Notes under the pieces: generated by a model
The model's database searches: none
What the model was told of the DNA's origin: nothing
What the model saw: only the letters and a program-made list of their open reading frames with translations
Shown here: one piece after another, positions 4,391 to 52,173 of the stretch
Layout: the number at the start of each line of letters is the position of its first letter
Position numbering within the stretch: position 1 is the first letter of the stretch
Position numbers and translations under genes: made by a program
From: an uncultured delta proteobacterium
Lineage (GTDB): Bacteria; Myxococcota_A; Polyangia; Palsa-1104
Assembly (NCBI GenBank): GCA_963785725.1
Contig: CAWAWS010000007.1
Location: 384,001-448,000 of the forward strand
Direction: 5' to 3'
Length of the DNA stretch: 64,000 nt

Positions 4391-5509
4391 TCAGGGCTGC
4401 GGATCGGCGCAGCAGCGGAAGCCGGTGGAGTAGTCGTGATACGTCTTGGCGTGGGCCGTCGTCGTGTAGAGGCAGCCGGGACCGTTGATCTTCGCGTCCA
4501 CGAAATAGCCGCCCTTGAAGATGCCGTCGCCGGCGCTGCTCGTGGCGTCGATCCACTCGTGCAGATTGCCGTGTAGATCGTAGATGCCCCAGCTCGACAC
4601 GCAGCGCGGAAAGCTGCCGCCGGGCGCGACGGTGTTCGGCTGGTCGTCGCAGCAGCTGCTGTTCATGTTCGCGGACGTGAATACGTCGCCGGTGCCGAAG
4701 CAGTCGTTGACGGGATTCGTCGCGCGGCCTTCGTTGCAGGCACCGGCCTGGTAGGTGTTGCCGTAGGGATAGGTCCAACCTTGCGGCCCTTGGCAGGCGG
4801 CCAGCCATTCGCTCAGCGTGCACAGTCGCTTGTGTGCGGCGGCGCAGGCGGCGGCGGCCTGCGCTTCGCTGATGTAGCCCTGCGGCTTCACGCCGTCCGC
4901 GACGACGGCGACAATGGTTGAACCTTCGGCGACCGTGTCGACGGGCTGATCGTACGGATGCGCCGTCACCGCGCCGGTCGCGTCGACGACTTCGGTCGCG
5001 GCCTCGAAGCGGTCGACGCAAACGGCGCTGGCGCTCGTGCTCGTGCCACCGCCGCCGCCGTTCGCCGTGCCGCCACCAGTTCCGCCGCCATTTGTGCCGC
5101 CGCCGCTCGAGCTGCCACTCGAACCCGCCCCGCCGCTCGAGCTGCCACTCGAACCCGCGCCGCCGCTCGAGCTGCCGCTCGAACCCGCGCCGCCGCCGCT
5201 CGAGCTGCCACTCGAACCCGCGCCGACGCCGTTCGCGCCGCCGGTTCCGCCGCCATTCGGACCCGCGCCGCCGCCATCGGCGGTCGCGCTGCCGCCGTCG
5301 GCGGCGACGAGGCTGACGCGCGCCATGCCCGCCGGACAGCCGTTGCCTGCGTCGGGCGGTGCGGCGCCGCCGTCGCTCGTCACGCCGCCGTCATGCCCGC
5401 CGCCGCCGTCGCGCGCGCTGCCGCCATCGGTCACACGCGGGCTGTGCGACCGCGAGCAATTGGTTAAACCAATCGCGACCACCCAAGCGCACACGCGAAA
5501 TCGGCGCAC
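4391..5509 (-). CDS. Lipoprotein with Gly/Ser-rich linker and C-terminal FGE-sulfatase (SUMF1-like) domain
   Basis: Lipobox-like GLTNC; CVDRFEA, KRLCTLSEWLAACQG, YDLHGNLHEW, GFRCC. Confidence 0.85.
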   Translation of the reverse strand: MRRFRVCAWVVAIGLTNCSRSHSPRVTDGGSARDGGGGHDGGVTSDGGAAPPDAGNGCPAGMARVSLVAADGGSATADGGGAGPNGGGTGGANGVGAGSSGSSSGGGAGSSGSSSGGAGSSGSSSGGAGSSGSSSGGGTNGGGTGGGTANGGGGGTSTSASAVCVDRFEAATEVVDATGAVTAHPYDQPVDTVAEGSTIVAVVADGVKPQGYISEAQAAAACAAAHKRLCTLSEWLAACQGPQGWTYPYGNTYQAGACNEGRATNPVNDCFGTGDVFTSANMNSSCCDDQPNTVAPGGSFPRCVSSWGIYDLHGNLHEWIDATSSAGDGIFKGGYFVDAKINGPGCLYTTTAHAKTYHDYSTGFRCCADPQP

Positions 5510-5549
5510 GCCTCAGGATAACGGAAGACGACTGTGCTAGGGCTAATGC

Positions 5550-36346: not shown

Positions 36347-37818
36347 CCGGCAAGCGCGGCAGCGGCGGTGGTCGCGCCGGCACTGCGGGTCTCGGTGCGC
36401 GTCACGCTGGCAACGGCCGCGGCGGATCCGGCAATCGCCGCGACAATGCAGCCGGTGGTGCTGACGGCAAACGCCACAACGACGCCGGCGCCGCGGACGA
36501 CGATCGCCGAGCAGCCGGCGATGCTGACGGCAAACGCGACGACGACGCCGGCGCCACGGACGACGATCGCCGAGCAGCCGGGGATGATGACGGCAAACGC
36601 CGTGACGACGCCGGCGCCGCGGACGACGATCGCCGAGCAGCCGGCGATGCTGACGGCAAACGCCACAACGACGCCGGCGCCACGGCCGACGACCGCCGAA
36701 CCGCCGGCGACGACGCCGGCGCCGCGGACGACGACCGCCGAGCCAACCCGTCGCCGGCAGCCCCGACTCCCGCCGACGCCACGGACGACGATCGCCGCCG
36801 CACAGATTCGCCGCCGGCCGGCGCGACTCCCGTCGACGCGCTCGTCGCGCCATCGTCTTCGTCCGACGAGCGCCTGCTGCAGCTGCTGCGGGGCGCCGAC
36901 TTCGTCTCCGGCGAACACATCGCCGACCTGCTCGGCGTCTCCCGCGCCGCTGTCGGCAAGCGCGTCACCGAGCTGCGCAAACGCGGCTTTGCCATCGCCG
37001 CTACGCCACGGCGCGGCTACCGGCTCGACGGCGAACCCGATGCCCTCGACGCCGCCGTCGTGCAGCCGCGCCTTGCCACCGACTGGCTCGGCCGCGCCTG
37101 GCGCCACCTGCCGACCACTGGTTCAACCAATGACGAAGCCGCCGCGTGGGCACGGGCCGGCGCGCCGGCCGGCGCCGTCGTCGTCGCCGACGCGCAGACG
37201 CGTGGTCGCGGTCGCCTCGGGCGTCGCTGGCATTCGCCGTCGGGCGCCAGCCTCTACTTCTCGGTCGTCCTGCGCCCGCCGCTGCCGCCACATCGCGTGC
37301 CGCCGTTGACGCTCGCGGCCGGTGTCGCCGTCGCCGAAGCCTTGACCGCGCTCGACATCACGCCGCAGCTGAAGTGGCCCAACGACGTCCTCCTCGACGG
37401 CAAGAAAGTCGCCGGCATCCTCACCGAGATGAGCTCCGATTCGATCGTGTCCATCACGTCGTCGTCGGCATCGGCGTCAACCTCAACACGCGCGACTTCC
37501 CCGACGAGTTGGTCGCGATCGCCACGTCGGCGGCGTTGGTGCGCGGCCTCCCCGTCGTGCGCGCCGACTTCGCCGCCGCGTTGTGCGGCCGCTTGGAACA
37601 TTGGTTTGACCGCTTCGTCGCCGAAGGGCCGGCCGTCGTCGCAGTCGCCTGGAAGCAGCACGCCCGCATTTTCGGTCGCCGCGTTCGCGTGACCGCCGGC
37701 CGCGACATCCTCGAAGGCATCGCCGAAGATCTCGGAAGACGACGGCGCCCTTCGTCTTCGCCTCGACGATGGCCGCTCCACGCGCGTCATCGCCGGCGAA
37801 GTCACCCCATTGGTTTGA
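36343..37818 (+). CDS. birA: Bifunctional biotin ligase/repressor BirA, with repeat-derived N-terminal extension and two frameshifts (~37440, ~37735)
   Basis: [60 protein letters not shown]; then [10 protein letters not shown] in another frame; then DGALRLRL...IAGEV back in the first frame. Confidence 0.9.
36455..36790. repeat. 63-bp tandem repeat (4 copies plus partial copies) upstream of the BirA HTH
   Basis: gacggcaaacg at 36463, 36526, 36589, 36652. Confidence 0.9.
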
Positions 37819-38208
37819 CCATTCCCCACAGCGCCGCTTCGGTCGACGGTCGTGAAGTGCCCACGGGCACGATTGTGGCGTGATTCGACGTACTGCCGCG
37901 TCTCCCGCGATTCGCGAACGCGATCGTCGCAATGGTTTAACCATTGCGACTAATGGTTTAACCATTGCCGGAAGCGAGGCGCCGACCGGCGACGTCGCGT
38001 GTTCCGCAGCGCGCAGATCGCGAGAGAGCAGCTCCGCCCGCGGGGGGCGTACTAGACTGGATCGTCGAGCGTTCGGCGAATCCGGGAATCCGCGGCCATT
38101 TGAGACACGAGGGACGCGTGTCTCGGCGATTTCTTCGCTGTCTGCGCGCTCGAATTGGTTTAACCAATTCGAGCGCGCGCTCGTTCGCGAGCGCAAACAA
38201 ACGGCCGC

Positions 38209-38844
38209 CTAATGAAAGGCGTTTTCCGGCAGCGTCACGTTCTTCGCCAGCTTGGTGAAGACGATCTCTTTCTCGTCGCCGTTCGGCTCGACGAGCGCGA
38301 TCGCCCGCAACAAATGCGTCTTGCCGTCGAGTCGCAGCTCGACGCGCGCGAACGCTCGCGCCACCGTGCTCGCCGGCTTCGGCGTCAGCAGCAGCGTCGG
38401 CGCAGCCGCCGTACCGCCGCTCGCGAGCTCGTAATCCGCACGCGCCTGCGCCAGCGAGCCCGACCCCAACCACACGAGCAGCTGGTCGAAGATGGCGCGC
38501 ATCGTCGCGTCCTTGGCCAGGTCGAAGACCTGCGGCGCCGCACCCGGCGACGACAGCGTGGCTCGATTCCCGTCGAGAATCAGCGTCGAAGGATCGGGCG
38601 TCGTGTACTCCCAGCGAATTTGCCGCGGCTGCCGAAAATAGAGCTTCCCGTGCGCGACCAGCTCTTGCTTGAACAGCTTGACCCGATTCCTCTGCGTGAA
38701 CTCGCCGCTCAAGGTCGTGACGGAAGCCTTCGCCGCGTCGACCTCCTTCAGCAACGCGTCCAACGGCGGCGCTTGCGCATGTCCCATCGCCGCGATGCCC
38801 AAGATCACCCACGCAGCGACGGCAGCGAGTAATGGTTTAACCAT
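38209..38844 (-). CDS. Outer-membrane lipoprotein carrier LolA family protein
   Basis: Signal peptide MVKPLLAAV...HAQA; GEFTQR, GKLYFRQPRQIRWEYTTP, C-terminal LPENAF. Confidence 0.85.
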   Translation of the reverse strand: MVKPLLAAVAAWVILGIAAMGHAQAPPLDALLKEVDAAKASVTTLSGEFTQRNRVKLFKQELVAHGKLYFRQPRQIRWEYTTPDPSTLILDGNRATLSSPGAAPQVFDLAKDATMRAIFDQLLVWLGSGSLAQARADYELASGGTAAAPTLLLTPKPASTVARAFARVELRLDGKTHLLRAIALVEPNGDEKEIVFTKLAKNVTLPENAFH

Positions 38845-38884
38845 TCCCCCGCCCCGTCGCGCTCGCCCATACGCCGACAGCTTG

Positions 38885-39245
38885 CCAGCAGACGCAGCCG
38901 CCGCGTCCCTATTCACGCCGGCAAACGAAGTGGCTGCGTCGTCGCTCACGCCGGCAAACGCGCCGGCTGCGTCGTCGTTCAGGCTGGCAAACGAATTGGC
39001 TGCGTCCTTTTGGCCGGCAAACGAAGCGTCTGGGTCGTCGCTCAGGCTGGCAAACGAGGTGGCTGGGTCGTCGCTCAGGCTGGCAAACGAGGTGGCTGCG
39101 TCGCTGTTCAGGCTGGCAAACGAGGTGGCTGCATCGTCGTTCAGGCTGGCAAACGAGGCGGCTGCGTCGCTGTTCAGGCCGGCAAACGCGCTGACTGCGT
39201 CATCGTTCAGGCCGGCAAACGCGCTGACGGCGTCGTCGTTTACGG
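38885..39245. repeat. 33-bp tandem repeat, about 10-11 copies, between acp and lolA
   Basis: ggcaaacg at 38920, 38953, 38986, 39016, 39049, 39082, 39115, 39148, 39181, 39214. Confidence 0.92.
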
Positions 39246-39272
39246 TCGCAACCGCGCCGGTCGCGCGGTCGC

Positions 39273-39533
39273 TCACGCCGGCGGCCGGTTGGCGCCGACA
39301 TACTCCGCCAGCGCGCTCACCGACGAGAACACCTTCTTGCCGACCGCTTCGTCGGGGATGGTCACGTGATACTTACGCTCGATCGCCACCGCCAGCTCGA
39401 GCGCGTCGATGCTGTCCAGCCCCAACCCCTCCTGAAACAGCGGCGCGTCGTCGACGATCTGCTCCGCCGTGACGTCCGAAAGGTTCAAGCTGCCGATGAT
39501 CAGTTCCTTGATGTCCCGCTTTAGATCGTTCAT
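39273..39533 (-). CDS. Acyl carrier protein
   Basis: PLFQEGLGLDSIDALEL phosphopantetheine site. Confidence 0.95.
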   Translation of the reverse strand: MNDLKRDIKELIIGSLNLSDVTAEQIVDDAPLFQEGLGLDSIDALELAVAIERKYHVTIPDEAVGKKVFSSVSALAEYVGANRPPA

Positions 39534-39552
39534 TCGCCCTTTCAAGTTCGCC

Positions 39553-40263
39553 TTACGTCAGCCCGCCGTCAACTCCGAGCACCGTGCCCGTCAGATACGC
39601 GGCTCCGTCGGAGCACAGCCACGCCGCGGCCGCCGCGATTTCCTCGGCGCGACCCGGCCGGCCGAGCGGAATCGCGCGCAGTAGCTCGGCGCGCGCTTTC
39701 TCCGGCAGCGCCGCCGTCATCTCCGTTTCGACGAAGCCGGCGCACAAGCAATTCACCGTGATCTGAAAGCGCGCCACTTCTCGCGCCAGCGATCGCGTGA
39801 GCCCGATCAGCCCCGCTTTTGCCGCGCCATAATTGGTTTGACCAATACGCCCCAGCATCGCCGTCGGCGAGACGATATGCACGACGCGTCCCCAACGCCG
39901 CCCGATCATCGCTTTGATCGCCTGCTTGCCGACGAGAAATCCCGCCTTCAGATGCACCGCCAAGACGTCGTCGAAGTCTTGCTCCGGCATCATCAGCATC
40001 AGCTTGTCGCGCGTAAACCCGGCCGCGTGCACGACGACGTCGAAGCCGCGCTCGCCCTCGACGTCGAAGAGCGCCTGCACTGCCGCCGCCGAGCTAACGT
40101 CACAGCGCGCCACGGCAATGGTTGAACCATTGTCGGCGACCGCCTGCGCAGCCGCGTCATCGTGCGCGTACAGCGCCAGCACGTCGTGGCCGGCAGCAGC
40201 GAGCGCGCGCGCGATCGCTAGGCCGATGCCCTTGGTTCCCCCGGTCACTAGCGCGCGTCGCAT
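39553..40263 (-). CDS. fabG: 3-oxoacyl-ACP reductase (FabG-like SDR)
   Basis: TGGTKGIG, GQTNYGAAKAG, GFVETEMT, IPLGRPG. Confidence 0.9.
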   Translation of the reverse strand: MRRALVTGGTKGIGLAIARALAAAGHDVLALYAHDDAAAQAVADNGSTIAVARCDVSSAAAVQALFDVEGERGFDVVVHAAGFTRDKLMLMMPEQDFDDVLAVHLKAGFLVGKQAIKAMIGRRWGRVVHIVSPTAMLGRIGQTNYGAAKAGLIGLTRSLAREVARFQITVNCLCAGFVETEMTAALPEKARAELLRAIPLGRPGRAEEIAAAAAWLCSDGAAYLTGTVLGVDGGLT

Positions 40264-40332
40264 GGGTCCGCATGTATATACGTACAGCGTGGCTGCTTCA
40301 ATGGTTCAACCATTTCCGCTATCGTGCGCTCG

Positions 40333-41142
40333 ATGATCCGCGGCTGGCCTTGGGCCCGACTCGTCTTCGGCCTCGCTGTCGCCGGCAGCGTCGGCGCGAT
40401 CGTCCGCACGCTCAGCGGCGGCAACCTCCCGTGGTGGTGCTTGGCGACGATCGCGATCGCGCTCATATCCAGCATCGGCGCCGGCGTTTTCATGCTCGGC
40501 AGCGGCCTCTTCGCGCGCCCCATTCTCGCCGTCGATCCCGCGCGCGCCGGCGATCGATTGGCCATCACCTTCGACGACGGTCCCGACGAAGAGCACACGC
40601 GCGCCGTCGCTGCGCTGCTCGAGGCGCGCGGCCATCGCGGCACGTTCTTCGTCATCGGCCGCCGCGCAGCCGCGGCTCCGGCGCTCTTGGCGGAGCTCGT
40701 GCGGCGCGGCCATGGGCTCGGCAACCACTCGTTCACGCACGCCTACACGACGCCGTTCCAGCATCCGAAGCGGCTCGCCGCCGATCTGGCGCGCGCGCAG
40801 GACCTGTTTGCGCAGGCGGGCGCGCGCGTCCGCTTTTTTCGTCCGCCCGTCGGGCTGCTGTCGCCGCGCGTGGTGGAAGCGGCGCGGCGAATTGGTTTAA
40901 CCATTGTCGGCTGGAGCGCGACCGCGCGCGATGGTCGCGCGTCGACGACGGCGGCCGCGGCGGCGGCGCGGCTCATCGCGGCGGCGCGGCCAGGCGCGAT
41001 CTTGGTGCTGCACGACTCTGCCGAGCGCGGCGCGCGCGTCCCCGTCGCCGCGGCGGCGCTGGTGCCGCTGCTCGACGCGCTGGCGGCGCGCGGCTTGCGC
41101 AGCGTGACGCTCGACGAGCTCATCGGAAACGAGGAGAACTGA
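40333..41142 (+). CDS. Membrane-anchored polysaccharide deacetylase family protein
   Basis: AITFDDGP, GTFFVIG, GNHSFTH, FFRPPVG, ILVLHD. Confidence 0.92.
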   Translation: MIRGWPWARLVFGLAVAGSVGAIVRTLSGGNLPWWCLATIAIALISSIGAGVFMLGSGLFARPILAVDPARAGDRLAITFDDGPDEEHTRAVAALLEARGHRGTFFVIGRRAAAAPALLAELVRRGHGLGNHSFTHAYTTPFQHPKRLAADLARAQDLFAQAGARVRFFRPPVGLLSPRVVEAARRIGLTIVGWSATARDGRASTTAAAAAARLIAAARPGAILVLHDSAERGARVPVAAAALVPLLDALAARGLRSVTLDELIGNEEN

Positions 41143-41903
41143 TGTCCGTACGCGTGGAGAAAAATGGCGCCGTCACGACGGTGGTCTTGAGCCGCGCCGA
41201 CGTGCGCAATGCCGTCGATCGCGATCACGCAGAGGCGCTGGCCGACGCCTTTCGCCGCTTCGAGGCCGACGACGGCGCGCACGTGGCGGTGCTCTTCGGC
41301 GAAGGCGGAAACTTCTGCGCCGGCGCCGACCTGAAGGCGATGTCGGCGGGGAATCCCAACCGTGTCGAGCCGAGCGGCGACGCGCCGATGGGCCCGACGC
41401 GCTATTTGCTGCGCAAGCCGGTCATCGCCGCGGTCGCGGGCTATGCCGTCGCCGGCGGGTTGGAGCTGGCCTGTTGGTGTGACCTGCGCGTGGTCGAAGA
41501 GGACGCGGTATTCGGCGTCTTTTGCCGTCGCTGGGGTGTGCCGCTCATCGACGGCGGCACCGTGCGCTTGCCGCGGCTCATCGGCCTGTCCCGCGCGCTC
41601 GACCTGATCCTGTCCGGCCGCCCCGTCGGCGCCGCCGAAGCATTGGCGATAGGTCTGGCCAATCGGGTCGTTCCGCGCGGCGACGCGCGCGCTGCCGCCG
41701 AGGCGCTCGCCGCCGAGCTCGCGAGCCTGCCGCAGCTGTGCCTACGCAACGACCGGTTGTCGACGTACGAGCAAGCGGCGATGACGATTCCCGAGGCGCT
41801 CGACAATGAGTTCGCCCACGGCTGGACATCGCTGGCGCACGCGGCCGAAGGCATCGATCGCTTCGTCGGCGGCGCCGGTAGACACGGCGGCAAACCCCAA
41901 TAG
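41142..41903 (+). CDS. Crotonase/enoyl-CoA hydratase family protein
   Basis: FCAGADLK, GYAVAGGLELACWCD, VFCRRWGVPLIDGGTVRLPRLIG, GAGRHG. Confidence 0.94.
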   Translation: MSVRVEKNGAVTTVVLSRADVRNAVDRDHAEALADAFRRFEADDGAHVAVLFGEGGNFCAGADLKAMSAGNPNRVEPSGDAPMGPTRYLLRKPVIAAVAGYAVAGGLELACWCDLRVVEEDAVFGVFCRRWGVPLIDGGTVRLPRLIGLSRALDLILSGRPVGAAEALAIGLANRVVPRGDARAAAEALAAELASLPQLCLRNDRLSTYEQAAMTIPEALDNEFAHGWTSLAHAAEGIDRFVGGAGRHGGKPQ

Positions 41904-42459
41904 CAAATGGTTAAACCAATCCCCTAAATGGTTTAACCATTTTCGAGTGCCGCTCTTCGATTGTGGCATTCACGGAAACGGCACCGCCACCAAATCCCGA
42001 GGAATGCTTAACCATCGGAGAGATGGTTTGACTGATCGCTGTGCCGCGAAATGCGGGCTCGACGCAAAGTCGGGGGGGGGGGAGACGACGGCTGCCGCGG
42101 CGCGAGTGGCAGCGCCGGTTGTGCGCGCGTGTCGCGAGTGGCGGAAGAGGGTCGCGCCAGTCGTCAACACCTCCTCGAGCGCGTTGGCGACATTATTGGC
42201 GTTCTGATCGCGCAGCAAACGCCGAGTCGGGTATCAATGGTTAAACCAATTGTAGGAATGGTTTCACCATCGACCGTTGCCGAGAGCGGGGCGTGCTCCG
42301 AACATCGGCGGGCGCATGGCGGACACGGCGACCGTGCCGTCGGTGGGCTTCCCGCGAGCAGCTGCCGCGTGCCGCGAAGTCTGCCGCCGGCCGGACGTCG
42401 GCCGCGCGCCGAAACATCGGCCGGCGTGCGTGCGATCGTCCGCAACGCTGTAACCGTTG

Positions 42460-42564
42460 GGGCGTGCTGCGAACGTCGGAGGGCGTGCTGCGAACGTCGG
42501 AGGGCGTGCTGCGAACGTCGGAGGGCGTGCTGCGAACGTCGGAGGGCGTGCTGCGAACGTCGGA
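42460..42564. repeat. Five perfect 21-bp tandem repeats (gggcgtgctgcgaacgtcgga)
   Basis: Directly visible. Confidence 0.95.
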
Positions 42565-42656
42565 TACTGCGAAACTTCGGCCGTCTGCCTTGAGTGATTC
42601 GCGGGGACGGCCGGCGAAATAGGCCTCGATCGGCCTGGGTTTGCGGCGGGTCGTGC

Positions 42657-43646
42657 TCAGCCGGCGAGTAGCGCGGCCGCCGTCGCTGCGCCGCCGTCGT
42701 CGCCGGCACATGCGAGCGCCAGGGTGCCTTGGGCGGCGTGACTGAAGAATTCAGCGACGGCGATGAGCGGCGCCGCGCCCAATGTATTCCCGTCGCTGAC
42801 GGCGCTTCGTGCAGCGCTGGCGGCGGATGAGCCGGCATCCCATTCGCGCCCTTGCACGCGGGCGCGACGAGCGGCGGCGCCATCAGCGGGCGCAGCCAGG
42901 ACGCGCCCGAACGCGCCCGCCGGCAGATCGGCCGCCGCCAGCGTTCGCGCGATCGCGTCAGCGACGGCCGCCGCGCGCGCGCCGGCGTGAAACGCGGCCG
43001 CCGCCGCCAGCAGCCGCCCGCGTGGCGTCGCGCCCCGTCGCGCAGCATCGCCGGCTCGCTCGAGCAGCAGCGCGGCGCTGGCGTCGACCAGCGCCGCGTC
43101 GGCGTAAAGGGACGGCCCGTCCCCCGCCAAAATTCGCGTCAACAACGGCGTCGCCACCTCGGCCGCGCACACCAACACGCGGTCGGCGCGCCCACGCTCG
43201 ATCAGCGCCACTCCTTCGGCGAACGCGTCGAGCCCACTGGTCAAACCATTGCACCACGCCGTCGCCGGACCGCGTACGCCGTAGTGAATCGAGACCTCAC
43301 CGACGGGAGACGAGGGCAACGTGTACGCGAACAGGCGTGGGCTGGCGCCGAGCTGGCCGTCGCGAACCAAGCCGCGATAGTAGTCTTCGTTGGTCGCGTG
43401 GCAGCCGAAGGCGCTACCGAATACGATGGCCGTGCGCTCGCCGTCCCATTCGGGCGCAGTCGGCGCCAGCGCGCCGTCGAGCAGCGCGCCATCGCAGGCC
43501 ACGAGCGTCAGCGCGCACAGGCGATCCATGCGCGCCAGCCGTGCCTCTTTGCCGGCCCAGCGCGCCGGCGCGAGCGCGGCGCCCGGCATGACCGCAACCG
43601 CATACGCGCCCGTCACCACCACTTCGGTTCGCCGTTCTCGCGCCAT
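42657..43646 (-). CDS. Beta-ketoacyl synthase-like protein lacking the catalytic Cys (chain-length-factor-like)
   Basis: VVVTG, RMDR, SPRLFAYTLPS, VSIHYGVRGP; GLTSG where an active KS has ACASG. Confidence 0.8.
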   Translation of the reverse strand: MARERRTEVVVTGAYAVAVMPGAALAPARWAGKEARLARMDRLCALTLVACDGALLDGALAPTAPEWDGERTAIVFGSAFGCHATNEDYYRGLVRDGQLGASPRLFAYTLPSSPVGEVSIHYGVRGPATAWCNGLTSGLDAFAEGVALIERGRADRVLVCAAEVATPLLTRILAGDGPSLYADAALVDASAALLLERAGDAARRGATPRGRLLAAAAAFHAGARAAAVADAIARTLAAADLPAGAFGRVLAAPADGAAARRARVQGREWDAGSSAASAARSAVSDGNTLGAAPLIAVAEFFSHAAQGTLALACAGDDGGAATAAALLAG

Positions 43647-43670
43647 CGCCAAGGCTGTAGAGTCTACGCA

Positions 43671-45725
43671 ATGCGGCAATCGGCGTCGATTTCGAAATGG
43701 TTAAACCAATCCTTGGCGCTGTTGCTGCTCGTCGCCGCCGGCTGCAGCAGCAAGCCAGTCGGCCCGCAGGCGGTCATGCAAGCGACGACGCCGCTCGACC
43801 TGCGCCTCTTGCCCTGGCCGTCGGATGCGCTGCTCGGCGACAACGGTAAGCTGCAGGTGGCGACGCCGTTCCCCTTCGATTCGCTCGTCGAGGACAATCT
43901 GACGCAGCTGGCGGCGTCGTTGTCGGAAGCGGACGGGTTTTCGTCGACGCGTTCGATCTTCTTCCCCGTCGACGCGGATGTCGTGCTCGACGCGGGCGCC
44001 GTCGCGACCGTGGCCGACCTCGACGACGCGACGCAGACGTGGAGCTTTCCGCTCTTTTATCGCGCGCCCTACAAGCAGCTCGTGGCCATGTCGCCGCTCG
44101 GGACGTCGCTGAAAGAGCACCACAACTACGGCTGCTGGATCACGAGCGGCGTTCACGATGCCGCCGGTCACGCGCTGCGGCCGTCGCCGACGATGCACGA
44201 TGCCATCGCTGGAAAAGGGGCGTTTGGCGGCAAGGCGTCCTATCAGAAGTTGGCGCAGCGTCTCGCTTCGTTAAAGGTCAAACCATTGGCGGCGACGGCG
44301 TTCACGACGCAGACGCTGACCGGCTGGGTGCCCAAGGTGCTCGACGATTTGACGGCCATGCCGCCGGTGGCGCACTTCACGCGGCTCTTCGCCTCGTCGG
44401 ACGACCTGCAGGATCTGTTCGGCGGCCCGGTGACGACGACGCTGCCGGGCCGTCCGGCGTCGGGCGGCGTGCTGCACGATCAGATCGGCTTCGTCCTCGA
44501 AGGCACCTACGACTCGCCGCACTATCTCGCGCCGACGCCGGATGTGCTCGGGCTGTTCGACGCCGCGCAATCGGTGCAGTCGGTCAACTCCATCCCGTTC
44601 ATATTGGTCCTACCAATTCGCGGCGACTATGCGAACACGCCGGTGGCGATTTTTCAGCACGGCATCGACAGCGACCGTTCGGCGGTGCTGTCGGTCGCCA
44701 ACGACTACGCGGCGCGCGGCTACGCCGTCCTCGGCATCGACGAGCTGTGGCATGGCTCGCGACTACCGGGCAACGTCGACAAGGTGTTCAACCTCTCCGG
44801 CGCGCCCGGCAGCGACGGCATCGGCGACCCGAGCAGCGGCGGCGCGGTGTCGTGGTTCTTCGACTTCAACGGCAACTCCAGCGCCGGCATCCTGTCGCTC
44901 GACGTGCGCTGCATTCGCGACAACTTCCGCCAAGCGACCGTCGATCTCATGCAGGAAGTGCGACTCGCGCGCAGCGGTGATTTCTCGTCGCTGGCGGCGG
45001 CCGACCCGCGCTTGGCGACGCTGACCATCGACGGGGCCGATCTCGTCTATACGTCGGAGTCGTTCGGCTCGATCTTGGGCGCGATCGTCGTCGCCGTCGA
45101 TCCGATGCTCGACTCGGCCGTGCTCGACGTCGGAGGCAGCGGCATGCTGGCCGATCTCGTGCCCAATTCGCCGGAGTTCGGCCCGCGACTGGCGCCGCTC
45201 GTCTCCAACGCGTTCGATATCGACGCCGATCTCGACGATCCCGACACGCTGCCCGTGCGCGCGCAAATGTCGTTCAACCTCTTGCAGCAGGTGCTCGATC
45301 CGGCCGACGGGCTCGCGCTTTCGTCGGGGTCGACCGCGAGCAAGAGCCTATTTTTCCTGCACGACTTCGCCGACGAGACGGTGCCGAATCAGGCGGAGGA
45401 GGCCTTGGCGCGCGCGTTCGGCGCCACGCAGGTCGTGCTCGCGCAGCAGTCTCATGCGCTCACGTACGTGACGTTGCCGACGACAGCGGCGCCGTATGCC
45501 GCTTCGCCGCTGCACGCCGTCGTCGAGTTGGCCGGCGCCGGCCACGGCATGTTCACGACGCAGGAAGGCACGCACAACTATCAGTTTCCGTTTCCGCCGT
45601 TCACGATGCTGCCGGCGGTGCAGCCGTTCGACGAGCCGACCGCGTTGGCGCACGCGCTGGCGCTCGACTTCATCGACAGCGTTCGCGCCGGCGCGCCCAG
45701 CATCACCGATCCGACCGCAAATTAA
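43671..45725 (+). CDS. Lipoprotein, VolA/Pla-1-like lipase (alpha/beta hydrolase) family
   Basis: Lipobox AAGC; PWPSD, ADGFS, FQHGI, IDELWHG, RDNFRQ, SESFG elbow variant, DETVPN. Confidence 0.7.
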   Translation: MRQSASISKWLNQSLALLLLVAAGCSSKPVGPQAVMQATTPLDLRLLPWPSDALLGDNGKLQVATPFPFDSLVEDNLTQLAASLSEADGFSSTRSIFFPVDADVVLDAGAVATVADLDDATQTWSFPLFYRAPYKQLVAMSPLGTSLKEHHNYGCWITSGVHDAAGHALRPSPTMHDAIAGKGAFGGKASYQKLAQRLASLKVKPLAATAFTTQTLTGWVPKVLDDLTAMPPVAHFTRLFASSDDLQDLFGGPVTTTLPGRPASGGVLHDQIGFVLEGTYDSPHYLAPTPDVLGLFDAAQSVQSVNSIPFILVLPIRGDYANTPVAIFQHGIDSDRSAVLSVANDYAARGYAVLGIDELWHGSRLPGNVDKVFNLSGAPGSDGIGDPSSGGAVSWFFDFNGNSSAGILSLDVRCIRDNFRQATVDLMQEVRLARSGDFSSLAAADPRLATLTIDGADLVYTSESFGSILGAIVVAVDPMLDSAVLDVGGSGMLADLVPNSPEFGPRLAPLVSNAFDIDADLDDPDTLPVRAQMSFNLLQQVLDPADGLALSSGSTASKSLFFLHDFADETVPNQAEEALARAFGATQVVLAQQSHALTYVTLPTTAAPYAASPLHAVVELAGAGHGMFTTQEGTHNYQFPFPPFTMLPAVQPFDEPTALAHALALDFIDSVRAGAPSITDPTAN

Positions 45726-45762
45726 CGAGGCGCATAATGGTTAAACCAATCCAAGAAATGGT

Positions 45763-47004
45763 TTAACCATTGGCGCGAGTGAGGACGACGGCGGCGTTCG
45801 TGCCGCCGAAGCCGGACGACGTCGACAGCGCGACGCGCACGTCGGCGGCGCGCGGCGCGCCGTGCACGACGTCGAGCGCGATCTGCGGATCGATCTCACG
45901 CAGCCCAGCGGTGGGCGCGATCTGGCCGGCTTCGAGCGTGCGCACGCAGACGATCGCCTCCAACGCCGCCGCCGCGCCGAGCGTGTGGCCGAGCGCGCCC
46001 TTGACGGAATTGACCGGGATGGCCCCGGCGCGTTCGCCGAAGACGTGACGTAACGCGTGGCCTTCCATCAGATCGTTGAAGACGGTGGCGGTGCCGTGCG
46101 CGCTGACGAAGCCGACGGCGCCCGCGTCCTGGCCGGCGTCGACGAGCGCGGCCTGCATGGCGCGGGCGGCGCCGCGGCCTTCGCGGTCGGGCCCGGTCAT
46201 GTGCACGGCGTCGGCGGCGACGCCGCTGCCGTCGACGAAGGCGCGGATGCGGGCGCCGCGATCCCGCGCGTGCGGCTCGGCTTCGATGACGAGAAAGGCC
46301 GCCGCTTCGCCGAGGTTGAGACCGCGGCGGCTGCCATCGAACGGGCGACAGAGCTCGGCGTCGAGCGCTTTCAGGCAGGCGAAGCCTTGAATGACGAAGT
46401 CGTGCAGCGCGTCGGCGCCGCCGGCGAGCACGACGTCACAGCGGCCGCTGCGGATGAGCGCCAGGGCGGCGTCGATCGCGACGTTACCCGACGCGCAGGC
46501 CACCGAGGGCACGACGAGCGGGCCGCGCGCGTCGACGGCCGCGGCGACGGCTTGCGCCGGACCGGCGTAGCCCCAGCCTTGCGGCGCGCGCAGTGGTGCG
46601 GTTGATGGTTCAACCATTGCGTCGATTGGTTCAACCACTGCGCCGATTGGTTTAACCATTGACGCGCCCGCTTCGACGTCGGCGCGAACGAGCGGCAGCC
46701 ACGACGCGATGCCGCCCAGCGTCGTGCCGCAGGCGACGGCGAGCCGCGGGCCGCGCGGGACGTTGCCGGCGTCGGCGAGCGCCTCTTCCGCGGCCCAGCG
46801 CGCCAACGTCGCGGCGCGCGACGGCGCCGTCAGCGGTAAAGCTTCGACGAGCGCCACGGGGCCGACGCGCAGGCCGACGGCGCTCAGCTGCGGCTGCTCG
46901 CGCATGGCGCGCTCGCCGTCGAGCAGTGCCGTCCACAGCCGCTCGACGCCGCGGCCGAAGCCCGTTACCGCGCCCATTCCCGTGACGACCGCGCGAATGC
47001 TCAC
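45763..47004 (-). CDS. Beta-ketoacyl-ACP synthase (FabF-like) with box-derived in-frame insertion
   Basis: ACASG, CRPFD, GLNLGE, AHGTATVFND, KGALGHTLGAA, SSGFGGTN. Confidence 0.93.
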   Translation of the reverse strand: MSIRAVVTGMGAVTGFGRGVERLWTALLDGERAMREQPQLSAVGLRVGPVALVEALPLTAPSRAATLARWAAEEALADAGNVPRGPRLAVACGTTLGGIASWLPLVRADVEAGASMVKPIGAVVEPIDAMVEPSTAPLRAPQGWGYAGPAQAVAAAVDARGPLVVPSVACASGNVAIDAALALIRSGRCDVVLAGGADALHDFVIQGFACLKALDAELCRPFDGSRRGLNLGEAAAFLVIEAEPHARDRGARIRAFVDGSGVAADAVHMTGPDREGRGAARAMQAALVDAGQDAGAVGFVSAHGTATVFNDLMEGHALRHVFGERAGAIPVNSVKGALGHTLGAAAALEAIVCVRTLEAGQIAPTAGLREIDPQIALDVVHGAPRAADVRVALSTSSGFGGTNAAVVLTRANG

Positions 47005-47124
47005 GGACGCTCGCTGGCCGCCGAATGTTCCGGCTCGAGCGCGCTCACGGCCGGCTGCGGGTAGGGCGCCGTCACCGCGAGCCGTTTACCGCGCGCGCCG
47101 TCGGCGGCCCGCCATCGCAGACTG

Positions 47125-47384
47125 AGGGCCGCGCAGCCGCCGTCGCTGGCGCTGCCGGGCACTGCTGCGGCGGATTCCAGAAGTCGAGCTCTGCCGATAG
47201 TCCACCGCAAGCTCAGGGCCGCGCAGCCGCCGTCGCTGGCGTCGCCCGGCAGTGCCGGGGCTGCCGCTGCGGATTCCGGAAGTCGAGCTCCGCCGACGGC
47301 CAAACGCAGCAGGCTCACGGCGCCGTCGCCGTCGCTGGCGTCGCCGGCACTGCCCGCACCGGCTGCGGCGGATTCCAGAAGTCG
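47125..47384. repeat. Three ~90-100-bp degenerate copies that include the acyltransferase 3' end
   Basis: gccgtcgctggcg...ggattccRgaagtcga occurs three times. Confidence 0.8.
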
Positions 47385-48271
47385 AAGAAGTTGAACCATT
47401 GCTCCGGATACTGCCGCACGTACCGTTCGTACACGGCCACGATACGCGCCGTCGCCTCGCGCACGTCGGCGTCGCGATCGCTCGTATGCGCCACTTCGAT
47501 CGGCGGCTCGACGTGAAACGTACAGTGCGTGCGCGTCTGGTCGGCGATGATGAACGTCGGCAAGAGCGGCGAGCCCGTCGCGCGCGCCAACGTCGCCGGC
47601 CCCAGCGGAAACGGCGCGTCGTGCCCGCAAAACGGCAGCCGCACATGCGGCCCGCCGGTGAAGCGATCCATCTGCATCCCGACGAGCTCGCCGCGACGCA
47701 GCACGCGCGCCAGATCGAGCGTCGCGAACGGCGAGCGCGTCGTGTACACGATGCTGAATTTCTCGCGAAACTGCCGCTCCCACTCGCCGGTGCCTTGGTT
47801 CGGCTCCTCGGCCATCGCCATCGTCAGCGGCGGATAACTCTTACGCTTCATCAAGATCGGCGCGATCTGCCAAAAGCCGAGATGCCCCGTGACGACGACG
47901 GCGCCGCGCCCCTCCTGCTGCAGCTTCGTGATGTGCTCTTGCCCGAGCGTCACCGCGTCGACGGGAACCGCTTGCCCGGCGTGCAGCGCGTACATGTTGG
48001 CGATCGACTGCGCGTAGTTCACGAAGAGGCGAAAGCTGCGCGCCTTCGTCTCCAGCGGATTGGTAGGACCAATGACGCGCTCGAGATTGGCCTCGATTAC
48101 GCGCCGCGCGCGCGGCACCAACACATAGAAAATACCGGCCCAGAACGGCATCGTCGCCCGCTGCAGCGGATGCGAAATGTTGCGAATACCGGCCATCATC
48201 ACCCGGCGGTAGAACGGACCTTCGAAGCGATGGCGAAACGCTTGAGCTGCTGACTGTTTCCGACTGCGCAT
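47315..48271 (-). CDS. Lysophospholipid/lipid A (LpxL-like) acyltransferase
   Basis: VVTGHLGFWQ, VGMQMDR, FPLGPATLARATGSPL, VRQYPEQWFNFFDFW. Confidence 0.9.
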   Translation of the reverse strand: MRSRKQSAAQAFRHRFEGPFYRRVMMAGIRNISHPLQRATMPFWAGIFYVLVPRARRVIEANLERVIGPTNPLETKARSFRLFVNYAQSIANMYALHAGQAVPVDAVTLGQEHITKLQQEGRGAVVVTGHLGFWQIAPILMKRKSYPPLTMAMAEEPNQGTGEWERQFREKFSIVYTTRSPFATLDLARVLRRGELVGMQMDRFTGGPHVRLPFCGHDAPFPLGPATLARATGSPLLPTFIIADQTRTHCTFHVEPPIEVAHTSDRDADVREATARIVAVYERYVRQYPEQWFNFFDFWNPPQPVRAVPATPATATAP

Positions 48272-48289
48272 ACGGACGCGCAGTATCCC

Positions 48290-51200
48290 CTAAAGTCGTG
48301 CGGGCGTCACGTCGCGCAAGAGCAGCACGTGATCGAGCTCGATCGCCGATCCTTCGCGCTTGAGCTCGATGCGAATTGGTTTAACCATTTCTGAAATTGG
48401 TTTAACCATTCTCGCTTCCTGGTAACGCGGGCCCAACGTCAGCGGCGGCAGCGCCACGCCGTCGACGATGACCGTCAGCTGCGCGTTGTCGCCGAGGGCC
48501 CGCGCGCGCACGAGGATGACGTCGGCGCCCGCCGGCGCGACCGCGCGCAGCGACGCCGTGGGCGCGTCGAGCGTACAGCTGCTCGCGCCCAGCCACTGCT
48601 CGAGCGCGGCTTCGACGGCCGGGACGCGCCCGTGGCGACAGACGAGATCGATGCCACCGACGGTCGACGGCGGCGGCGCGGCTGGCAGCGGCGCGTCGGT
48701 GACGCGCGAGGCCTGCATGATCGGCCGCGGCGACGGGCGCGCATGCACGGGCGGACGAAAGCTGTTCGGCGCCCACGTCGTCGTCGCGACCGCGCCGAGG
48801 CGAACGAGCGCTTCGCTGGCGCGCGGCAGCGGCGGCTCGGCGGCGGCGGCCGCCGCCAGCGCGTCGACGGCACGCGCGTCGCCGGCGAGACCGAGCGCCC
48901 AGGCCAGATCGACGCGCGCGTCGTCGTGATCTTCGACGGCAAAACGATCGAGCAGAGCCCCGGCGGCGCGACGATCGCCGACTCGTCCGGCGATGCGACC
49001 GACGGAGACGTAAGCGGCGCCGCGTACGCGCGGGTCGGCGGCGACGCTCCACAAGGCGGCGACATCGCCGGCGCCGCCGACGAAGCCGAGGTAGTGCGCG
49101 GCTTCGCGCTGCAGCGCCGCGGCGGCGCTGTCGCCTTCGGCGAACGGGCGACGACAGATCGCGGCCAAGCGCGGCGCCGCGGCGTCGTCGCGCAGACGGC
49201 CGAGCATGAGGGCGGCGCGATCGCCGTAGGCATCGTCGTCGACGAGCGCGCGCAACGCGGCGCGGGCGCGCGCGTCGCTGAGCTGGCCGAGCGCGAGCGC
49301 GGCTTCGGCGCGCACGGCGGGATCGCGGTCGGCGAGCGCGGCTTGTAACGCGGCCGCGGCGGCGAAGGCTTCGCGCTCGCCGAGCTCGCGGGCGGCTTGG
49401 GCGCGCGTGGCCGCCGGCTGCGTCGGGTCGCCGAGGCGCGTCGCCAGCAGCGACGGCGGCGATTGGTTCAACCATTGGCCGAGCGCCGCGCGCAGCTCGC
49501 CGCCGACGTCGGCGTGCACATCGTAGGCATTCCGCATTTCGCGCGGATCGGACTGCAGATCGTAGAGCTCGTCGACGTCGCGGCGCAGATCGTGAATCAG
49601 CTTCCACGGCCAACGCAGCAGCATGCGACGCGTGTGCACGGCCGCGACGACGTCGCGCGGCGCCGGGTCGAGCGGCGGCAGCGGGCGGCCGTCGCCGGCG
49701 CTGGGTGGCAAGCCGGCGAGCGCGGCCAGCGTCGGGGCGACGTCGACGAGCGACACCGGCGTGGCGATCGTCACAGCCGGCAAGAGCGCGCGGCCGACGA
49801 CGGTGACGACGAGCGGCACGCGCAGCTGCTCGTCGTAGACCGAAGAGCCGTGATACGCGCCGCCATGCTCGCCGAACTCCTCGCCGTGATCGCCGGTGAT
49901 GACGAGCAAGGTCGGGCGCGCCAAATTGGTTAAACCATTAATGAGGCGAGCGAGCGCGCCATCGACGGCGGCGACTTCGGCGTCATAACGAGCCAGTGGC
50001 GGCGCATCGGCGGGCAGGCCATGCAGCTCGTAAGGCTCGTGCGGATCGAAGTAGTGGACCCACAAGAGCGAGCGCGGCTCACCATCGGCGACGAGCTGCT
50101 GCACGCGCGTCAACACGGCGTCGGTCAGCTCCTCCGCGGGCAGCGTGCGCGTGTCGACCCATTCGAAGCCGAAATGATCGTTGGCGTACGGTAGAAGTGG
50201 CCCGCCGCCGTCGAAGAAGAGGCCGGCGGGGAAGAATGCGGCCGTCAGCCAGCCTTGGGCGCGCGCGATCTGCGCCAGCGTCGGTGGGCGCGCGTCGAGG
50301 TGCGACGGGTGGTGGGCGGTGAGCAGCGCCGTGATCGACGCGGCTGTCGAGGGTGCCGTGGCGTAGGCGCGGCTGAAGGCGAGGCTGTGCGCGGTGGCTG
50401 CGGCGACGAGCGGCATGTGCTCCGGCCGCAGGCGATCGGCGCGCAACGCGTCGACGGTAACGATGACGACGTGCGCGTCGCCGAGCGGCGCGGCGGCCTG
50501 CGCCCAGATGTCGGCGAGATCGGCGTCGGCGCGGTTCAGGGGCGCAAGATTGGTTAAACCATTCGCCGCGGCGGCGGTTGCGCCGGTCGTCACGCCCGGC
50601 GCCGACGGCGCGCCGTTCTTGGCGGCCGCAGCCGTCGTCGCCGCCGGGCGAAGAGCCGTCGCAGGCTGACTCAGCGAGCGCGCGACGAATGGTTTAACCA
50701 TTGTCACGGCGTCGAGGACGAGCGCGGTAGCCGGCGCTTGCGCGTTGGCCACGAAGCGCGTGTTGGCGCTGACGTCGACGAGAGTGCGACCGGCGAGCAA
50801 GAGCAGCACGCCGGCGAAAGACGCGACGGCGGACGATCGCCAGCGACGCCAGCTGCGCCAGTCGGCGGGCAGGCGCGGCTTGGCGGCGCCGAGCGCGCAC
50901 GCGAGCGCGACGAAACCGATGGCGAGCAGCGTCGCGCGCAGCGACGGGTAGAGGCGGCGGGGCAAGAGCGCTTCGAAGGCGAGCGTCGCCGCGCCGGCGG
51001 CGGCGAGCAGGACGCGGCCGAGTGGCGCGCGGCCGACGTGGAGCCGCGCGATCGACGGCAGCAGCCACAGCGCGGCGGAGATGGTGGCGGCGAGCAGCGC
51101 CGGCGCCGCGCGGCCGAGTCGCGCTTGCGCCAGATGGGTGGACGACAGCGCGATGCCGAGTGGAATGCCGGCGACGACGGCAGCGGCGGCGCGCGCGATC

Positions 51201-51661
51201 CGATCGGCTGCGAGCGCACGCGCACGCGCAAGTGCCGACGGCGCGCCGAGCGTCGTCGGCGATGACGGATTGCGAGCGGCATCCGCGACGTCGCCAACAG
51301 CGCGCGCAACATCGTGGTCGGAAGACGCGCCGTCGCGATCGGAAAGCGCGACGTTGCGAGCGGAAGACGCGCCGTCGCGATCGGAAAGCGCGACGTCGCG
51401 AGCGGAAGACCCGACGTCGCGAACGTTGCGAGCGGAAGACGCGCCGTCGTGGTCGGATGTCGCGACCTCGCGCCTGGCACCGGCCGTGAGCGCGCGCAGC
51501 CATGGCGTGAGGAGCAGCGCCGTGCCGCAGGCCAGCGCGAACGCGCCCGACCACAACGCCGCGCGCTCGCCGACACTGGCCCAAGCGCGCCGCAGCATGA
51601 GCACGTCGACCGTCGCCACCATCGCCGCGGCCCACAGCGCCGCCCGTCGGGTCGCATGCAT
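48290..51661 (-). CDS. Membrane-anchored sulfatase-like hydrolase/transferase with C-terminal HEAT repeats
   Basis: N-terminal TMs, VTVDALRAD, LWVHYFDPHEPY, YDAEVAAVD, ITGDHGEEF, LYDLQSDP; ALADRDPAVRAEAALALG. Confidence 0.82.
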   Translation of the reverse strand: MHATRRAALWAAAMVATVDVLMLRRAWASVGERAALWSGAFALACGTALLLTPWLRALTAGARREVATSDHDGASSARNVRDVGSSARDVALSDRDGASSARNVALSDRDGASSDHDVARAVGDVADAARNPSSPTTLGAPSALARARALAADRIARAAAAVVAGIPLGIALSSTHLAQARLGRAAPALLAATISAALWLLPSIARLHVGRAPLGRVLLAAAGAATLAFEALLPRRLYPSLRATLLAIGFVALACALGAAKPRLPADWRSWRRWRSSAVASFAGVLLLLAGRTLVDVSANTRFVANAQAPATALVLDAVTMVKPFVARSLSQPATALRPAATTAAAAKNGAPSAPGVTTGATAAAANGLTNLAPLNRADADLADIWAQAAAPLGDAHVVIVTVDALRADRLRPEHMPLVAAATAHSLAFSRAYATAPSTAASITALLTAHHPSHLDARPPTLAQIARAQGWLTAAFFPAGLFFDGGGPLLPYANDHFGFEWVDTRTLPAEELTDAVLTRVQQLVADGEPRSLLWVHYFDPHEPYELHGLPADAPPLARYDAEVAAVDGALARLINGLTNLARPTLLVITGDHGEEFGEHGGAYHGSSVYDEQLRVPLVVTVVGRALLPAVTIATPVSLVDVAPTLAALAGLPPSAGDGRPLPPLDPAPRDVVAAVHTRRMLLRWPWKLIHDLRRDVDELYDLQSDPREMRNAYDVHADVGGELRAALGQWLNQSPPSLLATRLGDPTQPAATRAQAARELGEREAFAAAAALQAALADRDPAVRAEAALALGQLSDARARAALRALVDDDAYGDRAALMLGRLRDDAAAPRLAAICRRPFAEGDSAAAALQREAAHYLGFVGGAGDVAALWSVAADPRVRGAAYVSVGRIAGRVGDRRAAGALLDRFAVEDHDDARVDLAWALGLAGDARAVDALAAAAAAEPPLPRASEALVRLGAVATTTWAPNSFRPPVHARPSPRPIMQASRVTDAPLPAAPPPSTVGGIDLVCRHGRVPAVEAALEQWLGASSCTLDAPTASLRAVAPAGADVILVRARALGDNAQLTVIVDGVALPPLTLGPRYQEARMVKPISEMVKPIRIELKREGSAIELDHVLLLRDVTPARL

Positions 51662-52173
51662 GAGCTTCTTGTATCGCCGATGCAACGGCGTATGGTCAAA
51701 CCAATGGTGATGACGCCGCGCGTTGCATTCGTCGCGCCGATCGTTGCTGCGCCTGCCGCGGTCATTCGCGCGCGGAACGCGTTGTTCGCGTCGAGTGAAG
51801 GCGAGGAGGCTATGCGTGCTCCGTCGCGGCGAGCGCTCGTCTTCGCGCCGAGCGCGCGCCTTCCATTTGTAGCCGTCGCGCCGAGCGAAAGCGGAGGCCA
51901 GCCATGCGCGCGACCCGTGCTGAGCGAAGGATGTCGCGAGTGCGCGATGTGCCGAGCGCGCGATGTCGCGGGCGCGCGACGTGCCGAGCGCGGTCGTGCC
52001 GAGCGCTGGCCGTCGCCACGCGCGCCGTCGTGCCGCGCGCCGACCGTCGCCATGCCTCCACCGCCGTCGCCATGCCGCCGCCGCCGCCGCCGCCGCCGTC
52101 GCTGACGTACCCTCCGCCGCGCCCATCTCGCCGCCGCCGCCGCATTTGCCGAAAGCAGTGCTACAACGTCGGC

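Follow-up and report, generated by a model that had tools for sequence, protein, structure and literature searches.

Islands of a FadR-operator-like palindrome within and between the genes of an uncultured delta proteobacterium

The window considered here is the whole analysed stretch of 64,000 nucleotides from an uncultured delta proteobacterium (contig CAWAWS010000007.1, positions 384,001 to 448,000, or G000:C7:384001-448000, where G000 is the source genome of 8.9 Mb with 68% GC), and it holds two dense groups of a 15-bp palindromic box, AWTGGTTNAACCAWT, as defined by a matrix built from 137 genomic sites. Genome-wide, 136 of the 137 strict copies of the box, TGGTTNAACCA, fall within four islands that total 86 kb, or about 1% of the genome: island A (C7:356-391 kb), island B (C7:421-436 kb), island C (C33:40-64 kb), and island D (C39:304-316 kb). 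Each island is 12-35 kb long and bears 20-60 sites, with about 160 sites in all four. Many of these boxes lie inside genes, where they are spelled by codons that the host rarely uses and often coincide with changed residues. The likely binder, as judged from sequence, is P0001, a GntR/FCD regulator encoded in island A, and we give an even chance to the reading in which the islands act as positional or structural hubs that hold the regulator and organise the local chromosome rather than control promoters gene by gene.

In the window, 49 copies of TGGT-N3-ACCA are found, 19 of them between 804 and 6630 and 30 between 37119 and 51703, with none in the intervening DNA; outside the islands there are 41 in 8.8 Mb (82 if both strands are counted; about 0.3 expected per 64 kb). 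The first group is the right end of island A (window 802..6632), which runs about 28 kb further to the left of the window, and the second is island B (window 37117..51705), where the 30 sites are spread over 14.6 kb from birA to past a sulfatase gene. Partial sites (11-13 of 14 positions) and half-sites are also enriched within the islands, and no avoidance of the box was detected outside them (2 observed vs 2.6 expected, both strands). The islands are real and hardly an artefact of assembly, as the same pattern recurs in seven other assemblies and in 15 of 26 metagenome contigs; these 15 map to island A, and most carry additional boxes.

A recurrent partial variant in the islands is perfect in one half and reads ACCT instead of ACCA (C7:380010, 385645; C33:42826, 50581). 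The sole perfect box outside the islands (G000:C20:273117-273131) is intergenic and adjoins the start of a predicted gene, probably aconitase-like to judge from its N-terminal sequence.

Codons and residues at the intragenic boxes

The first-pass annotation of this DNA had claimed that boxes are written into conserved protein motifs through rare AT-rich codons, and that DNA-level selection creates them wherever the protein tolerates them, which a promoter-only regulator would not require. The codon part of this claim is borne out. In 12 genes of the window, the GC content of third codon positions drops from 0.81-0.90 outside boxes to 0.20-0.42 in box codons. Genome-wide comparisons were made on genes from a hexamer-based gene caller, which missed some genes and to whose output six window genes were added by hand. 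In the islands, 36 of the 43 positions at which a strict box can be reached synonymously are boxes, against 1.8 expected from codon usage, whereas outside the islands this holds for 1 of 822 (2.1 expected). As a check on circularity, the islands were redrawn from intergenic boxes only, which leaves edge genes outside and is hence conservative. With islands drawn in this way, the peptides GST, GQT, GLT, VKP, VEP, VQP, and W[LF]N[QH] are written in box codons 42 times out of 62 inside and 37 times out of 3634 outside (Fisher p ~1e-60), so identical peptides elsewhere do not resort to the same AT-rich codons equally often. The remaining 20 of the 62 compatible peptides within islands, including a TGSTN in thyA, are not boxes, and the words "wherever the protein tolerates" are therefore too strong.

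The compatible peptides are themselves inflated in the islands. In 58 kb of island coding DNA, 43 compatible positions are found where about seven were predicted from the outside rate; per 10,000 codons, VKP occurs 6.7 times inside vs 1.6 times outside, and W[LF]N[QH] 4.9 vs 0.05 times. This points to amino-acid change and not to recoding alone. The 53 coding boxes of islands A-D were aligned to their orthologues in as many as 13 relatives; 42 were assigned to a class, and the other 11, with no orthologue at 45% identity or more among the loci compared, were set aside. Six of the 42 are purely synonymous, each having a box-free orthologue with the identical peptide; 25 go with residue differences (of one residue in three cases and of two or more in 22), five are in-frame insertions, and six are shared, that is, present in every gap-free orthologue. 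Examples of changed peptides are IGLTI in the deacetylase, which is AGLQL or THLVL in orthologues, and NGLTN in the sulfatase, which corresponds to EGLAI. Placement in conserved motifs by synonymous rare codons, as originally proposed, is thus seen for BirA (TGSTN), the GQT motif of FabG (IGQTN), and LolE (IGKTK), where a relative has the identical peptide without a box, and it does not extend to most boxes, which occupy variable residues and go with amino-acid differences or in-frame insertions.

At the 26 lineage-specific box sites, residue divergence is 48% vs about 23% elsewhere, and some of the residue differences at boxes are background divergence. Base divergence is 0.49 within the 15-mer, 0.27-0.29 at a distance of 8-16 nt, and 0.22-0.25 beyond. 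Box-free orthologous positions match 7.1 of the 14 consensus positions vs 3.9 in random sequence, which suggests that boxes form at partial matches. Insertion of a mobile element was ruled out as a source, as most coding boxes replace codons without any indel. One-step palindrome correction was also ruled out, since no consistent excess of left-right complementarity was detected, as were long conversion tracts, none being seen past the 15-mer.

Once formed, the intragenic boxes appear to persist across the genus under selection. In four congeners, 43 of 51 intragenic boxes lie at the same codons in G000, which is the first branch within the genus in all three trees (FastTree). Comparisons within box cores share a rare A/T third position in 32 of 75 cases, vs 118 of 1282 outside. 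The box in a lytic transglycosylase gene is kept in all seven of seven genomes, and that in an aminopeptidase gene is kept though its peptide varies (WLNQ, WFNQ, WSNQ). The proposal of DNA-level selection, confined to the islands and going beyond the needs of a promoter-only regulator, is thus supported by island-restricted codons, placement, and conservation.

Spacing, placement, and the candidate binder

Boxes that lie close to each other are spaced with high precision: 36 of 37 close pairs in G000 (13 within tandem arrays) and all 22 in the relatives G001-G004, G007, and G010 are at 21 bp, and 18 of 21 in G012 are at 20 bp. A five-box tandem array with a 21-bp period is located between convergent genes in island A (window 2192..2290). 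In isolated pairs the spacers are unrelated, and there is no bias between inverted and direct identity (185 vs 196 of 259 variable positions). The exact spacing, the unrelated spacers, and the equal direct and inverted identity argue, with moderate support, for two protein dimers that would sit side by side, two helical turns apart, and not for hairpins or plain duplication. Pairs as hairpins or terminators akin to repetitive extragenic palindromes (REP) were rejected, since no genome shows an excess of inverted over direct identity. Lone 21-bp pairs, from lower-GC organisms, are present on 10 of the 26 metagenome contigs, and a pair by itself is thus ordinary.

The placement of boxes among genes was counted over seven genomes (G002, with its fragmented genes, was excluded). 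Of the junctions between genes, 49 were convergent, 44 divergent, and 128 co-directional, and boxes mark 24, 19, and 44 of them, respectively. Sites deep within genes make up 106 of the 301 boxes. In G000 alone, 13 of 14 convergent vs 6 of 13 divergent junctions are boxed. The boxes thus show no promoter bias, unlike those of a coherent promoter regulon. The island genes are functionally unrelated and encode acyl-CoA and fatty-acid enzymes, a kinase, RluD, a transglycosylase, TatA, LolE, ThyA, dihydrofolate reductase, peptidases, a permease, and glycosyltransferases.

P0001 is a protein of 265 amino acids encoded on the minus strand of island A, to the left of the window (G000:C7:367773-368570). 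It matches the Pfam families GntR (1.5e-21) and FCD (8e-6), both above cut-off, and its structure model (predicted local distance difference test score 72.5) has FadR-type proteins as top fold matches. Its start, ATG GTT AAA CCA, lies inside a box pair, of 21 bp in G000-G004 and G010 and of 20 bp in G012, so that a box stands at the start of the gene in seven close orthologues. Further, among 13 distant homologues examined out of 20 returned, all from other families, 11 have TGGTTNAACCA directly upstream, in genomes without islands. The core of the winged helix-turn-helix (wHTH) domain is near-invariant across eight orthologues. The FadR-subfamily consensus consists, according to the accessible text of PMC4494728, of TKGT and ACMA boxes with 3 nt between GT and AC, and the box, taken from the matrix of 137 sites, fits this TKGT-N3-ACMA pattern. 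Because of the consensus fit, the box at its own start, and this phylogenetic footprint, P0001 is likely to be the binder of the boxes. Among 401 genomes of the class, eight have at least six 15-mers, eight have a close P0001 orthologue, and seven have both.

At homologues in another family, pairs with a 19-bp spacing were observed. The G012 regulator, whose genome has the 20-bp spacing, has one residue inserted N-terminally and a short stretch missing from the C-domain. The G010 regulator (G010:C51:28047-28772) has about 15 residues fewer after MVKPI and a short basic tail, a single case, in a genome with 6-10 boxes. G001-G004, G010, and G012 have a metallo-hydrolase-like gene between the counterparts of the genes at G000:C7:368635-369696 and 370043-370726; no such gene is called at this place in G000, which carries boxes and repeats there.

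Island B and the turnover of islands

Between 37119 and 50700, island B contains 29 boxes, of which 18 are coding, two overlap stop codons, and nine are intergenic. The individual boxes cited in the first-pass annotation are all present as described. The birA box (37117..37131, plus strand; cited at 37119) spells TGSTN as ACT GGT TCA ACC AAT, a synonymous recoding, since G003 has the identical peptide without a box, and another box (37809..37823, plus strand; cited at 37811) covers the birA stop codon (TTG GTT TGA). The birA gene (36874-37823) has two frameshifts, near 37439 and about 37730, which are probably assembly indels; a related contig has one extra base at the first. The convergent ends of birA and lolA enclose a 21-bp pair (37933/37954) and a single box (38156), within 37931..38168, and the probable lolA start is overlapped by a box on the minus strand (38831..38845) that reads MVKP.

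In fabG, the box on the minus strand at 39832..39846 (cited at 39834) encodes IGQTN, followed by Y, as ATT GGT CAA ACC AAT and is synonymous with respect to G004; it is intact in four of five covering contigs of close relatives, in which the adjacent bases vary. A second fabG box (40117..40131, minus strand), reading NGSTI, is in a variable loop, where orthologues have DGHVY and EGLSF. The divergent gap between fabG and the deacetylase gene has a box at 40300..40314, and a box is found in the same gap in G001, G002, and G004; it is a candidate both for a true promoter operator and for the seed of island B. The deacetylase box (40891..40905, plus strand; cited at 40893), IGLTI, differs in residues from box-free orthologues and is identical in G002. 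Two 21-bp pairs (41908/41929 and 42238/42259, within 41906..42271) separate the convergent ends of the hydratase gene and the gene for a ketosynthase (KS) resembling a chain-length factor (CLF), whose own box NGLTS (43236..43250, minus strand; cited at 43238) is present in G002 too.

A lipoprotein gene at 43671-45725 has a plus-strand box in the N-terminal signal region, KWLNQ (43696..43710; cited at 43698), and G012 has a WLNH box in the same place. This protein had been called a lipase; the box is confirmed, and the label is putative, there being no Pfam match. A weaker plus-strand box with central CCT in the same gene, ILVLPI (44603..44617), is synonymous with respect to G003. The gene is followed at convergent ends by a 21-bp pair (45736..45771), the second box of which (cited at 45759) holds the stop codon of the fabF-like gene (AAT GGT TAA). 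Within the FabF-like KS, three boxes with a 21-nt period (46604..46660, minus strand) form an in-frame insertion, with three units here, two in G002, and none in 5-6 gapped orthologues. Also on the minus strand are a weaker box in the lipid A-type acyltransferase, IGPTN (48059..48073), and the boxes of the sulfatase, namely a C-terminal 21-bp pair that encodes MVKPI twice and is common to G002 (48375..48410; cited at 48377 and 48398), and four more within 49462..50702: WLNQ in the context QWLNQS (49464), NGLTN twice (49927, 50551), and a third MVKP (50690). In the island A part of the window, the boxes claimed for the hydratase (3558) and LolE (5798, 6620) were seen as well. The block 38209-48271 is kept across the family and comprises a LolA-like protein, acyl carrier protein, FabG, polysaccharide deacetylase, the KS/CLF-like pair, and lipid A-type acyltransferase; it appears to resemble type II polyketide/fatty acid synthase clusters of the aryl-polyene type.

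The islands are confined to one clade, within which they extend, shrink, or arise anew between species; the first-pass annotation had noted neither this turnover nor a binder. Island A is present in G001-G004, G007, and G012 and is weak in G010; it measures 34.7 kb in G000 vs 26 kb in congeners. Island B has 30 boxes in G000, 14 in G002, and one each in G001, G003, and G004, and in G012 it reaches further to the right, covering moxR and the genes downstream of it, which bear no boxes in G000. Island D counts 27 boxes in G000, whereas five relatives have none in their 96 kb of orthologous DNA. Its nine coding boxes all differ in residues from every aligned orthologue, and a gain in G000 would be the simplest reading for this island. 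No similar islands were detected by the 15-mer in 393 other genomes of the class (0-5 copies; G331 and G363 are counted here) or in 300 other genomes of the phylum (0-4 copies). The 11-mer core reaches at most 13 copies in other families, similar to a reversed control, and four genomes inspected have scattered sites. In G012, two box pairs were noticed in a pilus-like gene block (G012:C462:19013-23129), which is probably of Tad type, by resemblance, and whose closest matches in G000 are box-free; this locus is possibly a young island.

A link to the replication origin was rejected for G002, where the islands are about 1 Mb from dnaA and parS. In the source genome, dnaA and parS-like sites are on C19, where there is no island, and the parS sequence differs from the box. 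GC skew and scans for KOPS-like and dif-like sites pointed to no position for the terminus.

Tandem repeats cover 7.3% of the G000 islands vs 1.3% elsewhere and are mostly box-free. For long box-free tandem repeats, the density in the islands is 7.7 times that elsewhere (20 in 86 kb vs 262 in the rest); repeat cover remains at 11% in the 3 kb flanking the islands and reaches background at a distance of about 10 kb. The excess is specific to G000, the islands of relatives having a repeat cover of 0.6-3.3%, and a 21-bp period is not enriched among the box-free repeats (7/39 vs 217/1218). In or beside island B, box-free tandem repeats with periods of 21-99 bp occupy gaps at 35036-35283, 36448-36710, 38912-39240, 42460-42564, 47164-47385, and 51318-51422.

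Proposed mechanism, rival explanations, and known systems

In the hub reading, a P0001-type regulator is predicted to bind boxes cooperatively, with two dimers adjacent at 21 bp, and clusters of boxes, which lie about 0.8-1.8 kb apart, would be bridged into a hub, for which support is moderate. A new site near the hub would be occupied and add to it, while a lone distant site would gain nothing, and this positive feedback would keep sites within islands, where they would be built at the cost of codons and residues. New sites would arise stepwise by substitution from partial matches, and by 21-nt duplications in loops and intergenic DNA. Cooperativity and bridging are the most economical choice because what needs explaining is that sites are favoured only near other sites. 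The binding is predicted from sequence, and what the hub would deliver is the least certain part of the reading. A bolder version, to which we lean less, is that a FadR-type autoregulated repressor has turned into a self-propagating chromatin-like system, whose hubs would nucleate, spread, rewrite proteins, raise local duplication, and collapse. If it were true, such hubs would be a bacterial counterpart of spreading, sequence-encoded chromatin domains.

Several observations weigh against the hub. A purely stepwise path from 7/14 is difficult to envisage, since coding sites that match at 9 or 10 of 14 positions show no enrichment (146 observed vs 142 expected, and 25 vs 23, respectively). At a distance of 21 bp from a box, weak sites show hardly any enrichment either (5 of 238 in G000 and none in congeners), and of the 10 islands tested only 2 have clusters spaced more evenly than random (p <0.05). 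In G001, G003, and G004 a single box remains of island B, whose function, whatever it may be, is therefore dispensable, and sites common only to G000 and G002 may reflect gain as well as loss. The repeat excess hints at a mutational component. The distant P0001 homologues resemble ordinary repressors with few scattered sites, the four such genomes inspected having just 2-11 scattered copies of TGGTTNAACCA. Boxes and P0001 are also imperfectly matched: in G007, which is 51% complete, there are boxes and no orthologue was found, and G011 has an orthologue and no strict box (86% complete, 1070 contigs, the gene being cut by a contig end). Finally, since the genomes are kin, the co-occurrence of box and orthologue counts as about one evolutionary event.

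The strongest competitor, still improbable in our estimate, retains the same binder and supposes a transcriptional output only, in over-built repression units where a few promoter operators would govern lipid and acyl-CoA genes, with the remaining boxes as auxiliary sites or roadblocks and the neighbouring genes as bystanders. It is in keeping with the box at the own promoter of homologues in other families, with the FadR-type regulators being the closest solved relatives of P0001, and with the acyl-CoA dehydrogenase, hydratase, AMP-ligase, BirA, FabG, and KS genes of islands A-C; the fabG/deacetylase box survives where the remainder of island B is box-free, and auxiliary operators both upstream and downstream raise lac repression, as the accessible part of PMC3592455 states. 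It accounts poorly for island D, which has no lipid-metabolism gene among its Pfam matches and appears new, for housekeeping genes inside the islands (birA, lolE, the thyA/folA region), or for the G000 convergent ends, which are boxed more often than divergent gaps. Lasting silencing of the island genes is disfavoured by the rates on the G000 branch, where proteins of island A (0.158) evolve no faster than those of the flanks (0.166), the value for island B being 0.212. To our knowledge, 160 sites exceed any known set of auxiliary operators. Slightly less probable again is a non-adaptive local drive, of the kind that has been proposed for uptake sequences, in which biased copying or repair of bound DNA (short gene conversion between bridged boxes, or fork slippage) would grow islands without benefit. 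The dense box-free repeats of G000, with their excess past the island edges, the swelling of island A from 26 to 34.7 kb, the rise of 27 boxes in one block in one lineage, and the lack of enrichment of the intermediate 9-10/14 coding sites suit such a drive; it sits badly with intragenic boxes kept across the genus with rare codons intact, with isolated pairs that are exactly spaced yet have unrelated spacers, with the missing repeat excess in relatives' islands, and with the lack of a clear conversion tract past the 15-mer or of a consistent palindrome-correction signal.

We consider it quite improbable that another protein, such as a chromosome-segregation, division-placement, or DNA-uptake factor, reads the boxes and that the GntR gene merely happens to lie within an island. 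Position-dependent, gene-independent sites are indeed typical of SlmA and MatP (accessible text of PMC3116907), and G011 has the GntR gene without boxes; set against this are the finding that 11 of 13 distant loci, in genomes without islands, have a box ahead of their GntR homologue, the distance of the G002 islands from dnaA/parS, and a distribution that is not genome-wide as for uptake sequences. Least probable of all is that the boxes come from assembly or polishing errors, or act as RNA hairpins of REP-like or terminator-like kind. G000 does have probable indel errors (the birA frameshift), and paired palindromes can always fold, but identical boxes stand at identical codons in independent assemblies, and inverted identity is not favoured over direct identity in pairs.

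If the hub reading is true, it describes a way, previously undescribed, in which a transcription factor takes over chromosome neighbourhoods. The islands are a clean natural case of bacterial DNA-level selection that overrides codon bias and protein sequence. They make testable how a local regulator can become a chromosome organiser and whether site clusters can grow by positive feedback. Controls are built in, since sister species have islands at different stages and orthologous genes can be compared with and without boxes, and the cooperative interface could be mapped by comparing the 21-bp genus with the 20-bp genus. A full-text literature search by box sequence and concepts found no account of such islands, most subscription papers and the supplements being outside its scope; for example, the regulon tables of PMC4494728 might hold the motif.

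Protein and box fit the FadR subfamily, as judged from the features tested, in everything but promoter-centred placement. According to the accessible text of PMC4494728, operators of this subfamily (FadR, PdhR, LldR, GlcC) are likewise A/T-rich palindromes with a TKGT-N3-ACMA core and a site at the regulator's gene, the proteins combine a wHTH with an all-helical effector domain, and double sites at a constant distance are described. In that text the sites are single or double and intergenic, whereas the islands have 20-60 sites, about a third of them deep in genes, with others at convergent ends, amid unrelated genes. Intragenic sites of bacterial transcription factors have been argued, in the portions available of a PhoB study (10.1101/2023.02.07.527549) and PMC6397444, to be mostly unselected noise. 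Unlike such inert sites, which drift and are not conserved, the boxes are far above chance, conserved in the genus, and accompanied by amino-acid changes; with purifying selection and an amino-acid cost, they would be a counter-example to this view.

The uptake sequences of Pasteurellaceae and Neisseria also form a motif in coding DNA that raises the peptides it spells and prefers poorly conserved residues (PMC2817400, accessible text), but they are present in hundreds to thousands of copies genome-wide and use preferred codons, whereas the boxes use rare codons, are confined to about 1% of the genome, form pairs of fixed spacing, and match an operator. MatP/matS and SlmA with its binding sites (SBS) offer region-restricted palindromes, many of them coding, in which position matters over gene, and SlmA is a repurposed TetR-type protein (PMC3116907, accessible text); there, however, 23 matS and 50 SlmA sites define terminus-tied macrodomains, and here about 160 boxes form islands of 12-35 kb that appear unrelated to oriC and change within a genus. 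The helically phased fixed spacing of 21 bp (20 bp in G012) is reminiscent of looping repressors. In the lac system, an operator inside a gene (O2 in lacZ) raises the local repressor concentration, with a benefit that depends on distance, and a single promoter is served by two auxiliary sites; the accessible part of PMC3592455 mentions neither runaway spread nor a rewriting of proteins. The hub reading would thus amount to the auxiliary-operator principle of lac scaled from 2-3 sites to 20-60 per island.

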